DNA of 64,000 nucleotides from an uncultured bacterium (GTDB lineage Bacteria > Krumholzibacteriota > Krumholzibacteriia > JACNKJ01): positions 1,920,001-1,984,000 of the forward strand of contig CAVOFT010000001.1 in assembly GCA_963695095.1 (NCBI GenBank). Direction: 5' to 3'. The notes under the pieces were generated by a model. It did no database searches and was not told where the DNA came from. It was given only the letters and a program-made list of their open reading frames with translations. Both the position numbers and the translations under genes were made by a program. Shown piece by piece: positions 35,468-57,979 of the stretch; position 1 is the first letter of the stretch, and the number at the start of each line of letters is the position of its first letter.

Positions 35468-36322
35468 GTGGCGGGCGATTTCGAATCCGTCTATGTCCGG
35501 GAGATTTCGAGAATCCCCGTCTTGGGCCCCGAGAAGGAGCGCGCGCTGGCCCGCCGGCTGCGCGACGGGGATGCTGATGCCCGACGGGAGCTGATCGTCA
35601 GCAACCTCCGGCTGGTGCTCAGCATCGCGCGGTCTTACGCGGGGCGCGGCGTCGGCCTGATGGATATCGTCGAAGAGGGCAACCTGGGCCTCATCCGCGC
35701 CGTGGAGAAGTTCAATCCCGATCGCGGCTTTCGCTTCTCCACCTATGCCTCCTACTGGATCAAGCAGGCCATGGCCCGCGCAGTGGCCAACCAGGGACGG
35801 ACCATCCGCATCCCTTTCCATGTCTACCAGCTCGTGAATCGCTACACGCGCTTGATGGTCCGCGAGAGCCAGGCAGCGAGCAGTTCCGATGCGGAGCTCG
35901 CGCGGCGCCTGCACTGCACCGAGCGCAAGGCCCACCTGCTGCGCAATCTCGTGATGGGGATCCTCTCGCTCGACCTGCTGATGAGCCAGGGCGCGATGAA
36001 GGAGCTCTATGCGGCGGAAGAGAACCGTGTGGGCCAGACGCCGGAAGATGTCGTTGCCCTGCAACTCGAGCACGAGCAGGTGCACCGTCTCATGGACAAG
36101 CTGTCGGAGCGCGAGCGCGCCGTCCTGCGCATTCGCTACGGCTTCGAGTCCGCTGGGGAGTTTCAAACGCTGGAGGAAACGGGGCGCGCCTTCGGGGTCA
36201 CGCGCGAGCGCGCCCGCCAGATCGAGATGAAGGCCTTGCGGAAGCTGCGCTTGCTCCTGCTGAGCGAGGAGGCAGGCAACGGCGAGGTTGGTGAACAGAG
36301 CCCCCGTAGCTCAGGCGGATAG
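35468..36322 (+). CDS. RpoS/RpoD-family sigma factor lacking region 1.1
   Basis: [56 protein letters not shown]. Confidence 0.9.
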
Positions 36323-36372
36323 AGCAGCGGTTTCCTAAACCGCGTGGGCAGGTTCGAGTCCTGCCGGGGGTA
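36300..36372 (+). tRNA. tRNA-Arg(CCT)
   Basis: Acceptor GCCCCCG/CGGGGGT; anticodon arm GCGGT-TTCCTAA-ACCGC; GGTTCGAGTCC; short 4-nt variable loop. Confidence 0.9.
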
Positions 36373-36410
36373 CCTGATCGGGATGGGTAGGGGCATGGGC
36401 GGTGGGCATG

Positions 36411-36533
36411 AAAAAACGAGGGGCTCACCGCTGAGTACGTATGACTACCCACCCTTCAGAGGCTCGTGCGGCAATCGCTTCGCTGAGATGCATGAGGATA
36501 CGGGGTCACGTACTCCCAGTAGAGCCCACTCGC
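36411..36533 (-). ncRNA. Candidate ~123-nt rod-shaped ncRNA of unknown family
   Basis: Own TTGACA-17-TAACCT promoter; end-to-end nested pairing (GCGAG/CUCGU, GGGCUC/GAGCCC, GAGUACGU/ACGUACUC and others); G-U wobbles favour the minus strand; ends in U6. Confidence 0.75.
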
Positions 36534-36539
36534 GAACGA

Positions 36540-36568
36540 AGGTTAGCAGCGAGGTCAAGGGCTGTCAA
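36540..36568 (-). promoter_or_regulatory. sigma70-type promoter of the candidate ncRNA
   Basis: TTGACA-17 nt-TAACCT with extended -10 TG; the first paired G lies 7 nt downstream. Confidence 0.8.
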
Positions 36569-36669
36569 CGCGGTCCGGCAATATTTTGCGCTATGATGCG
36601 CGTATCCGTAATCCCTGCGTAATGAACGCGTTATCCTGGCTGAAATATCGCCATTCCGTCACCAGGCCG

Positions 36670-36702
36670 AAATAAATAGGCGCCCCTCCAGGAAGGGCGC
36701 CT
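36670..36702 (-). terminator. Intrinsic terminator after the small-peptide ORF
   Basis: AGGCGCCCTTC-CTG-GAGGGGCGCCT then ATTTATTT. Confidence 0.7.
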
Positions 36703-36734
36703 TAGGTATGGAAAGCCATTGGGTCCTCTTGAAC

Positions 36735-36788
36735 TTAGTCTCGCAACCACCAGAAGAGATCCAGCAGTCCGCAGAAGAACACCAACAT
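36735..36788 (-). CDS. Candidate 17-aa hydrophobic small protein MLVFFCGLLDLFWWLRD
   Basis: AAGGAGG RBS 7 nt before ATG; upstream sigma54-type promoter; downstream terminator; too short for the ORF track. Confidence 0.6.
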   Translation of the reverse strand: MLVFFCGLLDLFWWLRD

Positions 36789-36840
36789 GGGTTCTCCTCC
36801 TTTCCTTCAGGACCTCGGCCGAGATGTCCGCATCGTGCCT

Positions 36841-36856
36841 TGCAAGGCCCGTGCCG
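36841..36856 (-). promoter_or_regulatory. sigma54 (-24/-12)-type promoter
   Basis: CGGCACG-GGCC-TTGCA versus consensus TGGCACG-N4-TTGCW, with exact GG-N10-GC spacing. Confidence 0.7.
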
Positions 36857-36875
36857 TTGCCAAGCAATCCTCGGT

Positions 36876-39372
36876 CTAGCTAGCGATCCGCATGAATACA
36901 AAGGAGATATCGTCGCTCTGGGCACCCTCGCCGAAGCGGGTGAGCTCGTCCAGAAGCTGGTCGGAAAGGCCTTCTAGACCTTCATCCGTGCGCGATTGCA
37001 GCCAGCCCGCCAGGCGCTCCTCGCCATAGGACTCCTGCTGGCGGTCCAGCTGATCCTCCAGCCCGTCCGAGCGCAGGAAGAGCAGGTCCCCCGGACGCAG
37101 TTGCAGCACCCCCTGCAGGTAGGACTGCCCCTGCTCCACCCCCAGCAGCTGACCGCCGCGCCGCAGGCGCTCGAGGCGCCCTTCCCGGCGGAGGAGCCAG
37201 GGCGCGGGCATGCCGGCATTGCAGTAGCGCAGAAGCCCGCTGTCGCGCTCCACCTGCCCATAGAAGAAGCCCGCGAAGGTGCCATGCCGGCGCGCCCGAT
37301 CAGCAACCAGCCGGCCGAGCGACTGGTTCATGCCGGCCAGGACCTGGGCGGGGGCGAGACCGTCGGCGGCCTGGGCGTGGAAGGCCACGGCCACGGAGGA
37401 GATCAGCATCGCCGCCGGGACGCCATGCCCCGTCGCATCGCCGAGGGCGAGACCCAGCCGGCGTTCGTCGAACTCGAGGAAGTCGTAGTAGTCCCCGCCC
37501 ACTTCGCTGCTGGTCCGCATGCGGCCCGCCAGCTCGATCCAGGGCAGGCGAGGCGTGCGGCGGGGGAGGAGGTCGAGCTGGATGCTGCGGGCCAGCTCCA
37601 TCTCGCTGCGCAAGCGCTCCTCCCGGGAGGCCAGGGCGACAAGACTCAGGTTGCGCAGGTGCAGTTCGAGCGGGGCAACCAGCCGCTGCAGGCCTTCGAT
37701 GATCTCCGCGTCGTAGAGCGCCCGGCGCCGGGAAGGACCGAGCACCAGCAGCGCCGGGCGATCGCTGTCGCCGCTGAGGCGAAGCAGCAGGGCCCAATCG
37801 TGGGCCTTGCAGTAGGGGAGGGCCTCCGGGCCCAGCAGGCTCCGCGCCCAGTAGGGGTCCCACTGCTCCGCAGCGAGGAAGCAGCGCTTGCCCAGCAGGG
37901 CCTCCTCGAGAGTGCCAGGCAGGCTGTAGCCGGCGCCAGCGTCGGGGACCGTGATGGAGGCCGGGGAACCGCCCTCGCTTACCCAGCGATCCTGGACGCG
38001 CCAGCTGCCATCGTCCTCGCCTTCCAGCCAGAGCAGCCAGGTGGATTCCGCCTCCCAGCCCAGCCGCGGCAGGAGCGCTCGGCTCAGCTCGCGCCGGCAG
38101 GTGAAGTAGCGCGGGGGCGCGAGCCAGCGCAAGCAATCCTGAAAAGGCGCTTCGCTGCCCTCGCGACTGCGGCGCAACAGGCGGCGGCGCAGGGGCACGA
38201 CCATCGGCAGCGCGATGAGCAGAGCGAGGGTGTCGAAGACGAGGTCTTCGGGAGCGCTTGCTGTCCCGGGGCGCAGCGCGTGCAGCCCGAGTCGAACGAG
38301 GAGGAAGAGGCCGATCAACAGGGCGCTCGCGATGAGGAGCCGGCGCAAACGCGCGGCGCGGTGATAGAGGGCCGGCAGGTCCGGTCCCAGGATGCCCAGG
38401 GCGAAGCTGAGCGGCAGGAGCGTGAGCGACAGGGGAATCCAATCCGCTAGCCCCAGGCGCCGTCCCGGCAGGACCTGGTGCAGTAGCTGGAAGACGACGA
38501 GGGGAAGCAGTCCGAAGAGCGCGGCGATGAGCACGAGGCGGATGCGCCGTCGCTCACGGCGATGCTTGCGCCGGAAGGCCTTGAACACGAGGACGCCGAG
38601 GCCGAGCAACAGCAGGAGGCCGCTCTGGATGGCGGCGACCTGCTGCAGTGTCCGCGCCGGGGCGGCCGTGCCCGCGATCGGAAGATCGGCGAGGATCGCC
38701 GAGGCCGACCACGAGGGCGAGCAAGAGGGGGGGCAGGTAGATCAGCAGGCGCAGGACCAGAGGCCGCGCTCGCCGCTCCGGAAAGAGGATGATGAAGTGG
38801 AGCCAGACCGCGGGCAGCAGCAGGGCGAACACGTCGGCCTTCCACTCCAGGAAGGTCGCCGCCGCACCGGGCCCCGGCCGGGGATCGAGCGCGAAGAGCG
38901 AGCCGATGAGCAGGGTGAGCAGGAAGAAGAGCCTGGCCAGGGGGTCGCGGCGACGGCCCTGCACCCAGTACCCGATGAGGAAGACGGCGATGGCCGCAAG
39001 TGTGCGCAGGCTCAGGCCGAAGCGGCGGCCGAGATCGGGCGGGCGCAGGGATAGCGTCTGCTCGAGGCGTTCGCTTCCGCGCTGCACCTCGAGGCGGATG
39101 GGGCCGGCTCGTGCGCCCGCCACCAGGGCGGCGCTGGCCTCGGCGTCCCGGCGGGGACTGTGGCCGTTGATGCGCAGGAGGCGATCGCCGGCTTGAAGCG
39201 ATGCCTGCCCTTCCCCGGCGGGCGCGTTGGGTATCACCCGCAGCTGCCTGAGGCGGAAGGGGAGCTCCGGCCCCTGCCAGCGCTCGCTGAGGCCGGCGGC
39301 GGCCAAGAGGATCAAGGCGACGAGGGCGAGGGCGGGCAGGGCGCGCCGAAGCCCCAGAAAGAACCTGGCCAT
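36876..39372 (-). CDS. Membrane PDZ-like / multi-TM / SpoIIE (PP2C) phosphatase; apparent 1-nt insertion near 38700-38730
   Basis: LQAGDRLLRING PDZ-like motif, several TM helices, VGGDYYD, GDATGHG, NAG, SDG, DDIS. Confidence 0.8.
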
Positions 39373-57802: not shown

Positions 57803-57979
57803 AAATTCCCCACGCATTGCCGTGCGAGAATCTACCGCATGGGCCAAAGTTCCCATGGGGGAAGACCACACGACCGGTTCAGGTCGCCCGCGGGCACCAT
57901 CGGTCGGTCGGATTCGGCCTTCCAAAGTGAAGGTGTTGGCTCAGACGCTGTCTTCCCGCTCGAACACGGTAGGGAATCT
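57803..57979 (-). ncRNA. ssrS: 6S RNA
   Basis: ~180-nt intergenic region downstream of zapA with its own promoter; terminal pairing CUACCGUG/UGCGGUAG and GGGAAGAC/GUCUUCCC; UGAGCCAACAC, GGUGCCC and CCUGAACC segments. Ends approximate. Confidence 0.8.

Follow-up and report, generated by a model that had tools for sequence, protein, structure and literature searches.

A new family of structured bacterial small RNA encoded beside a SpoIIE-family phosphatase gene in Krumholzibacteriota, with a candidate message target

What kind of gene is encoded by a compact, strongly folding element on the minus strand at positions 36411-36533 of a 64,000-nucleotide (nt) stretch of DNA from an uncultured member of the Krumholzibacteriota (GenBank assembly GCA_963695095.1, contig CAVOFT010000001.1, forward-strand positions 1,920,001 to 1,984,000; this whole stretch is hereafter called the window)? 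A first-pass annotation, made from the letters of the window, had described the element as a self-contained gene for a rod-shaped non-coding RNA (ncRNA) of no recognisable family, and had suggested that it acts as a decoy for a protein or for RNA polymerase. Our analysis leaves little doubt that the element is a real, self-contained gene and founds a new family of bacterial small RNA (sRNA), though no new category of system. For its function we favour, tentatively, antisense pairing with one distant message, and we weigh this reading here against its rivals.

The gene is delimited by a promoter and a terminator of its own. On the minus strand, the -35 hexamer TTGACA (36563-36568), found by its sequence and its conserved spacing to the core of the RNA, is followed after a 17-nt spacer by an extended -10 element, TG-n-TAACCT (36540-36548; TG at 36548-36547, TAACCT at 36545-36540). 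The RNA would start near 36533, 7 bases past TAACCT, and would consist of a rod of ~117 nt with a U6 tail. Its intrinsic terminator (36411-36420) is formed by the 3' strand of the closing stem (CUCG) together with the U6 tract (36416-36411). A consensus promoter scan missed this promoter owing to its weak -10 hexamer, and the support for it is its conservation, not the scan; both the TTGACA-17-TAACCT promoter and the U6 run read by the first-pass annotation are present in the sequence, and the promoter is conserved among homologues.

Folding with RNAfold gives -53.2 kcal/mol for the minus strand, against -39.0 +/- 3.6 kcal/mol for 200 dinucleotide shuffles (z -3.94, with 0/200 shuffles as good), and the minimum free energy structure is a rod in which the 5' and 3' ends pair and which is interrupted by small internal loops only. 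The nested helices listed earlier were reproduced by this fold. The plus strand was folded too, as had been proposed, and since it folds almost equally well (-50.0 kcal/mol, z -3.88), the folding energy cannot set the strand. What identifies the minus strand is the promoter, which is conserved, together with the terminator and the numerous G-U pairs of the homologues, the alignment bearing out the earlier remark that these pairs work only on that strand. The element is present once in its own 3.64-Mb genome (BLAST) and once in the window, where it is the sole match of our covariance model R1 (135.9 bits).

We searched for relatives in a phylum sample of 151 genomes that fall into nine families, f1 to f9, the family of the window being f1. 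BLAST recovered the element in 11/11 genomes of the same family, and in all 12 f1 sequences (the window and 11 relatives) the motif TTGACA-N17-TAnnnT, its distance to the core and the U-tract are kept. The 12 sequences were aligned with MAFFT (A1), and RNAalifold places 35 pairs in the alignment, of which 14 show compensatory changes. In 91.6% of the cells the bases do pair, a share that falls to 36-41% if the 3' partners are shifted by 1-3 columns; none of 500 shuffles reached the observed covariation. This covariation is confined to the outer rod, that is, to helices 1 and 2. The apical helices 3 and 4 and their loops show no change, or change on one side only. They form a nearly invariant core of ~50 nt (36451-36499, minus strand), seen in alignments A1 and A3, that holds helices 3 and 4, the internal loops, an AA bulge and an NNUU loop.

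The family extends well beyond f1. When 185,579 species genomes were scanned with the core pattern, 36 loci were found, which R1 divided into 27 full-length homologues, 3 weak partial ones and 6 without a match; the record titles of the 27 homologues name Krumholzibacteriia, Latescibacteria, one Chitinivibrionia or unclassified metagenome-assembled genomes. Read by eye, the -35 hexamer of these 27 is TTGACA in 26 and TTGACG in one, with a TATACT-like -10 and a U-tract, and a U-tract lies 3' of the closing stem in all aligned homologues. Outside f1 the -10 is TATACT or TATAAT, so that it is close to consensus in three of four families, and in f1 it is weak but TG-extended. A second model, R2, built from 20 of the 27 further homologues and used with stricter filters that may lose weak matches, found exactly one copy in 50/151 phylum genomes: 9/9 in f1, 18/33 in f4, 14/17 in f5 and 8/9 in f8. 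The same search found none in f2 (0/61), f3 (0/5), f6 (0/9), f7 (0/6) or f9 (0/1). The f4 RNA is a diverged form that keeps the core and has the promoter TTGACA-17-TATAAT, and the most conserved stretch across f1, f4, f5 and f8 is GCCUCUGA. Thus, the homologue search and the covariation analysis called for by the first-pass annotation found an RNA that is conserved in related genomes and whose outer stems covary.

In the apical core, the alifold structures of the f5/f8 alignment and of the f1 alignment conflict, and the bases that would decide between them are invariant. The changes seen in f1 and f4 appear to fit a continuous hairpin, GCG-AA-GC-loop-GC-YGC, better. A kink-turn reading of GCGAAGC was dropped, as the required helix is absent in f1. 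In f7, three loci (L148, L151 and L152) carry a different unit of ~190 nt, with a TTGACA/TATAAT promoter and a terminator, after the terminator of the neighbouring micro-ORF described below. Only short strings are common to this unit and the RNA (AGCGAAGCGGU and ACGUACUCAG) and R2 gives it no score; it may be a very divergent homologue of the RNA.

Searches against known families gave no identity for the RNA. A scan of the window with Rfam 15 at gathering scores reported four tRNAs and nothing else, no Rfam family matched over the RNA at E<=10 when 36250-36750 was searched, and six loci from f8, f5, f4, f7 and f2 yielded only tRNAs. This bears out the first-pass view that the RNA belongs to no recognisable family and is neither the signal recognition particle (SRP) RNA, nor a tRNA, nor the 6S RNA proposed at ~57.9 kb. 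Indeed, SRP RNA (RF00169) was rejected on the lack of any match at the locus with E<=10, the true SRP RNA of this genome being encoded at G000:C1:2316337-2316436 (70.9 bits). Nor does the RNA replace another housekeeping RNA: SRP RNA, RNase P RNA and transfer-messenger RNA are all encoded elsewhere in the genome, and a 6S candidate lies at 57.8 kb. This candidate (57803-57978, minus strand) is a full-length match to RF00013 that scores 35.8 bits, below the gathering score of 46.4 (E 3.9e-5 in a 2-kb search); a search of the whole genome with RF00013 reported nothing.

The decoy idea of the first-pass annotation has to be weighed here. A stable, rod-shaped RNA that lies beside a sigma factor gene in f1 could be thought to occupy RNA polymerase in the manner of 6S RNA. 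However, RF00013 has no match at the locus at E<=10, the internal loops are small and there is no central bubble of the 6S type, a separate 6S candidate exists in the window, the sigma gene is a neighbour in f1 only, the conserved neighbour being a PP2C phosphatase gene, and no test points to RNA polymerase. We consider this explanation extremely unlikely.

Other identities were examined in the same way. A dispersed repeat, such as a repetitive extragenic palindrome or a miniature inverted-repeat transposable element, was rejected because the element is single-copy, with one copy in its own genome and one per genome in 50/50 positive genomes. With Rfam matches absent, conservation and covariation strong and the gene single-copy, the observations named beforehand as arguing against an ncRNA gene were not encountered. 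A cis-acting leader or riboswitch does not agree with an RNA that ends at its own terminator and is followed by a convergent tRNA gene, with downstream genes that differ among loci. A small coding gene was likewise dismissed: an AUG-initiated frame of 22 codons is not kept in relatives, which have CAAGC in place of CAUGC, length differences do not come in threes, substitutions are paired or compensatory and not codon-like, and the short frames of either strand are unconserved, with stop codons on the opposite strand in f4. A sponge for Csr/Rsm proteins was set aside, since the sequence has one GGA and one small apical loop.

A further explanation would need no trans-acting RNA at all: the element could be decaying, or could work in cis by separating convergent genes, as an insulator or as a terminator for both directions. 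It draws on the good folding of both strands and on the position between convergent units in f1. Against this, the conserved promoter and the U-tract are found on one strand only, the G-U pairs are specific to the minus strand, the invariance of ~50 nt goes far beyond what a terminator needs, and the downstream neighbours differ across families. We therefore judge a cis element or a remnant to be very unlikely.

What could the RNA act on? On the same strand and upstream of it, the window encodes a 577-residue stress-signalling phosphatase of the SpoIIE family (PP2C; 36876-38609, minus strand; Pfam PF07228, E 5.5e-43), and the same kind of gene, often a GAF-SpoIIE phosphatase, occupies this position in 28/30 RNA loci, the other two being cut by contig ends. 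STAS proteins are textbook substrates of SpoIIE/RsbU-type phosphatases, which act on phosphorylated STAS. Outside its own gene, the best BLAST match of the RNA in its genome (25 nt at 88%, E 0.088) is antisense to the last codons of a gene for a 142-residue STAS protein (PF01740, E 1.8e-9), located between mraZ and rsmH. As found by BLAST, pattern search and duplex energies, the antisense segment GCCGCAC-GA-GCCUCUGAAGGG (36452-36472, minus strand) complements the site G000:C1:2231262-2231282 in the STAS message. Nucleotides 62-81 of the RNA (GCCGCAC-GA-GCCUCUGAAGG, window 36472-36453), on the invariant 3' side of the core, can pair with the message sequence CCUUCAGAGGC-GA-GUGCGGC, which encodes P-S-E-A-S-A-A, in a layout of 7+12 nt.

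This match stands out energetically. The 38-nt core and a 111-nt window at the 3' end of the STAS gene give -54.3 kcal/mol, against a background of -34.5 +/- 4.0, and among the seven STAS domains of the genome only the one between mraZ and rsmH stands out, the other six being ordinary. The 20-nt segments alone reach -37.5 kcal/mol in the genome of the window (G000) and -41.6 kcal/mol in a relative from genus g3 (G004), in which the pairing extends over all 20 positions; once the energy needed to open both partners is subtracted, -13.5 and -20.7 kcal/mol remain, respectively. A chance match is unlikely, because SpoIIE/RsbU-type phosphatases act on STAS proteins and the seven STAS genes occupy only a tiny part of the genome.

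The site is also conserved at the level of nucleotides. The orthologous STAS gene and the site are present in 11/11 f1 genomes examined; the exact 19-nt pattern occurs in 8/12 f1 genomes, three more carry a TCA-to-TCG change plus one or two others, and one incomplete genome yielded no site. Synonymous positions within it are frozen or compatible with wobble pairing (CCT in 11, TCA in 8 and TCG in 3, GAG in 11, AGT or TGT in 11, GCG in 11), whereas other invariant proline, serine, glycine and leucine codons of the same gene use 2-4 codons. In the message, the site is the loop of a long-range helix, GGCGGCGGGAG...CUUCCGCCGCC, which is kept by compensatory changes. The 3' end of the STAS gene is a structured element in its own right (G000:C1:2231180-2231330; ~1420-1570 of locus L002, minus strand), in which an invariant CAAGAGGGUGAGAG follows the helix that encloses PSEA, just before rsmH; this element has no Rfam match.

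We could thus propose, as a possible though tentative reading, that in f1 the RNA is a trans-acting antisense sRNA on the STAS message, tied to the neighbouring phosphatase and feeding into partner-switching control of sigma factors. In this scenario, the sigma70-type promoter would produce an RNA of ~120 nt, closed into a rod by pairing of its ends; transcription would be ended by the 3' strand of the closing stem and the U-tract, which would probably also protect the ends of the RNA; and the 3' side of the core would pair with the loop of the STAS 3' stem-loop. This pairing would alter how stable the STAS message is or how well it is translated, perhaps with the same effect on rsmH and the division genes that follow, so that an RNA input would be added to the partner-switching pathway of the neighbouring phosphatase. 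Both the pairing in vivo and its regulatory outcome are extrapolations from sequence. What makes the proposal attractive is that it is a concrete, testable link between an sRNA fixed beside a PP2C input phosphatase and partner-switching sigma control, and we know of no case of an sRNA that targets the mRNA of an anti-anti-sigma factor.

Several observations weigh against this reading. The complementarity is confined to f1: in f5 and f8 mraZ is directly followed by rsmH; the gene that lies between mraZ and rsmH in f4 has a different C-terminus and shows no complementarity; and when one f8 and one f5 genome were scored, none of their 22 STAS domains stood out. A BLAST search of an f8 RNA against five f8 genomes gave no secondary match better than E 0.02, with scattered matches of 14-21 nt in unrelated genes; 12 of the short f8 matches were inspected and lie in unrelated open reading frames, and no conserved target was found in f5 and f8. 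Two pattern hits in families that lack the RNA (G026 and G054) fall within genes for a sigma factor and a Sir2-like protein and were put down to chance. Moreover, the core is at least as conserved in the families without the match as in f1, and because of this, pairing with the STAS message cannot be the function of the RNA family as a whole. Within f1 itself, two nucleotides in the middle of the duplex show no compensatory pattern, the antisense segment is largely base-paired inside the RNA at an opening cost of ~12 kcal/mol, and the frozen STAS codons could serve the message's own structure or a protein.

Expression data belong with these points. We compared Logan contigs from four metatranscriptome runs with positions 36200-37000 of the window. 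In two runs of one study, a multi-gene contig of a relative (8.2 kb and 2.0 kb) covers the sigma gene, the tRNA gene and the RNA (36200-36534) as well as the micro-ORF region (36736-36856), and in one run a 202-nt contig with a depth of 2.8 covers 36317-36524. No discrete transcript was seen among the contigs of the four runs, and contigs cannot show ends, strand or abundance; for that reason, we infer transcription of the RNA from its promoter and terminator.

The opposite strand of the core offers another view of the STAS match. In f1, f5 and f8 it reads PSEA(R/H)AA(I/T)ASL, a motif like that of STAS C-termini; stop codons lie around this motif and, in f4, inside it. For this reason the RNA may have its origin in the antisense strand of a STAS gene end, and the match in f1 could be a functional interaction, a relic of this origin, or both. 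If it is a relic, the RNA could instead bind a protein, either as part of a ribonucleoprotein or as a decoy, much as 4.5S, 6S or Y RNA do, with the apical tip as the recognition site and the rod as a source of stability. Several observations are consistent with this: both ends lie in the closing stem so that there is no single-stranded seed, ~50 nt including the unpaired AA bulge and a 5x4 internal loop are invariant while the stems covary, the core is equally conserved in families without a detectable complementary target, nearly all homologues have a consensus -35 as housekeeping RNAs do, and the strict linkage to one protein operon resembles the adjacency of smpB to ssrA and of rsr to Y RNA genes. 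However, no known protein-binding RNA motif was recognised and no partner was identified, and a relic would leave unexplained why the STAS site is frozen at the nucleotide level in 11/11 f1 genomes. We regard protein binding as somewhat unlikely, yet as an explanation to be taken seriously beside antisense pairing with the STAS message.

It is also conceivable that the RNA acts through short seeds, the C/U-rich unpaired stretches beside the apical hairpin (CUCUCA.. and GCCUCUGA) pairing with G-rich ribosome-binding sites in all four families. The second of these stretches is, as mentioned, the most conserved part of the RNA, ribosome-binding sites in these genomes are G-rich (for example AAGGGGG and GGAGGA), and seeds of 7-9 nt would escape BLAST searches. 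Nevertheless, no target was identified, most of the C/U-rich bases are predicted to be paired or to lie in small loops, and the invariance of the GCG-AA-GC-NNUU-GC-YGC hairpin would remain unexplained. In addition, the RNA shows no excess complementarity to the message of the adjacent micro-ORF: shuffled RNA gives duplex energies that are just as good (mean z -0.31, 17/29 loci), a result by which a role as type I antitoxin of this micro-ORF was rejected as well. The short-seed explanation thus appears quite unlikely to us, and antisense pairing with the STAS message in f1 remains our preferred reading.

The surroundings of the gene separate what is conserved from what is local. On the plus strand, the window has surE, pcm, tRNA-Pro, a gene for a sigma-70-family factor (35468-36322, convergent; Pfam regions 1.2, 2 and 4) and tRNA-Arg(CCU) (36300-36374, convergent, 36 nt from the terminator of the RNA; ARAGORN, Rfam tRNA 59.8 bits). 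In the segment 33879-36374 of this strand, the sigma open reading frame as listed overlaps the tRNA by 23 nt. The order of these genes recalls surE-pcm-nlpD-rpoS of enterobacteria. On the minus strand, the order is RNA, terminator, micro-ORF and phosphatase gene. A convergent sigma factor gene lies downstream in 8/10 f1 loci and is adjacent only in this family; elsewhere the downstream genes encode a permease, a TIM-barrel enzyme, a Band 7 protein, a peptidase M19, a peroxidase, an aminotransferase, an amine oxidase or an ABC-3 protein. What is conserved is thus the linkage of phosphatase, micro-ORF and RNA, and the RNA is its lineage-specific addition, because the pair of micro-ORF and GAF-SpoIIE gene also stands in families that lack the RNA. 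Of the context on which the first-pass annotation had built, the sigma gene and the sigma54 promoter are both real; the conserved neighbour, however, is the PP2C phosphatase, the sigma gene is found beside the RNA in f1 only, and the sigma54 site would drive the micro-ORF and not the RNA. Some smaller features were noted around the gene. A tRNA gene lies ~100-400 nt from the locus in f1, where it is tRNA-Arg(CCU), and in some f4 and f7 loci (L103 1367-1440 and L148 2458-2531), the anticodon having been checked for the window only. Between tRNA-Arg and the terminator of the RNA, the plus strand has a G-rich tract with at least 4 GGG runs (36380-36410), and several f1 members carry a C-rich, GCCCCTACC-like string 3' of the terminator.

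The micro-ORF encodes 17 residues (MLVFFCGLLDLFWWLRD) behind a GGAGGA ribosome-binding site (36735-36788, minus strand) and is conserved. A terminator scan placed an intrinsic terminator behind it (36678-36702, minus strand), which closes its transcript, and a sigma54-type promoter-like site, GG-N10-GC with one mismatch to consensus, lies in front of it (36841-36856, minus strand). An open reading frame of 14-18 codons that ends in ...(I/V)D(L/I)(L/F)WWL(R/K)x lies between the phosphatase gene and the RNA in 29/29 loci examined, and in 26/27 further loci it is 265-456 nt upstream of the RNA core. Because a similar GG-N10-GC motif sits between the phosphatase stop codon and the micro-ORF in other loci too, we see the micro-ORF as a separate unit that is probably sigma54-dependent.

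Across the phylum, the micro-proteins are hydrophobic, 14-22 residues long and end in ...(I/V)D(L/I)(L/F)WWL(R/K), as in ...DLFWWLR, with no match to a Pfam or NCBIfam family. The DNA pattern of the micro-ORF occurs in 127/151 genomes, nearly always once, and a reversed control pattern occurs in about a quarter of genomes, mostly of the larger families that lack the RNA. Among these families, the pattern is present in f2 (57/61), f6 (7/9) and f7 (5/6), and the micro-ORF follows a GAF-SpoIIE gene in 29/29 loci tested; with filters off, no homologue of the RNA was found within ~2 kb of the micro-ORF at 26 loci of f2, f6 and f7, the best score being 11 bits. The micro-protein has 21-22 residues in f2 and f6, 15-17 in f7 and 14-18 where the RNA is present. 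In f5 and f8 (L042, L045, L065, L073 and others), a stem-loop with conserved arms (CGGUGUUCCCG ... CGGGAACACCG), a variable loop and no U-tract lies just 3' of the micro-ORF stop codon, where f1 has an ordinary terminator, and the basic residues at the end of f5/f8 micro-ORFs frequently have AGA or AGG codons. The analysis has thus brought to light an unannotated micro-protein gene that occurs throughout the phylum and has a sigma54-type promoter motif.

It is tempting to speculate that the RNA, derived from the antisense strand of a STAS gene, the GAF-PP2C phosphatase and the sigma54-driven micro-protein of 14-22 residues form a fixed three-part module, in which the RNA would set, besides phosphorylation, the level of the anti-anti-sigma factor encoded in the mraZ-rsmH head of the cell-division operon. 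We consider this wider idea unlikely; if true, such a module would tie cell division to stress signalling in an uncultured phylum. Structured, covarying and independently transcribed RNAs outside Rfam are still rare, and among the matches listed in our full-text literature search there was no paper on ncRNAs of Krumholzibacteriota or Latescibacteria.

Finally, the RNA can be compared with known systems. It resembles the SRP (4.5S) RNA of RF00169 in being an end-paired rod of ~115-120 nt with a conserved apical hairpin and internal loops, single-copy and under its own promoter, but it has no match to RF00169 at E<=10, its loops have different sequences and it is limited to four families. With 6S RNA (RF00013) it shares a stable rod and a sigma factor gene as one of its neighbours, although it is shorter, lacks the central bubble and does not match this family. 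RsmZ-type sponge RNAs adjoin rpoS in Pseudomonas, and our sRNA, whose gene measures ~120 nt, likewise has as its neighbour an rpoS-like sigma gene that follows surE-pcm; unlike RsmZ, it has one GGA, almost no hairpin loops and no Rfam match. In contrast to trans-encoded type I antitoxin sRNAs, its proposed target is a STAS regulator, it has no complementarity to the adjacent hydrophobic micro-ORF and its match is found in one of four families; with these antitoxins it shares a complementarity of ~19-20 nt to a structured region of one distant mRNA.

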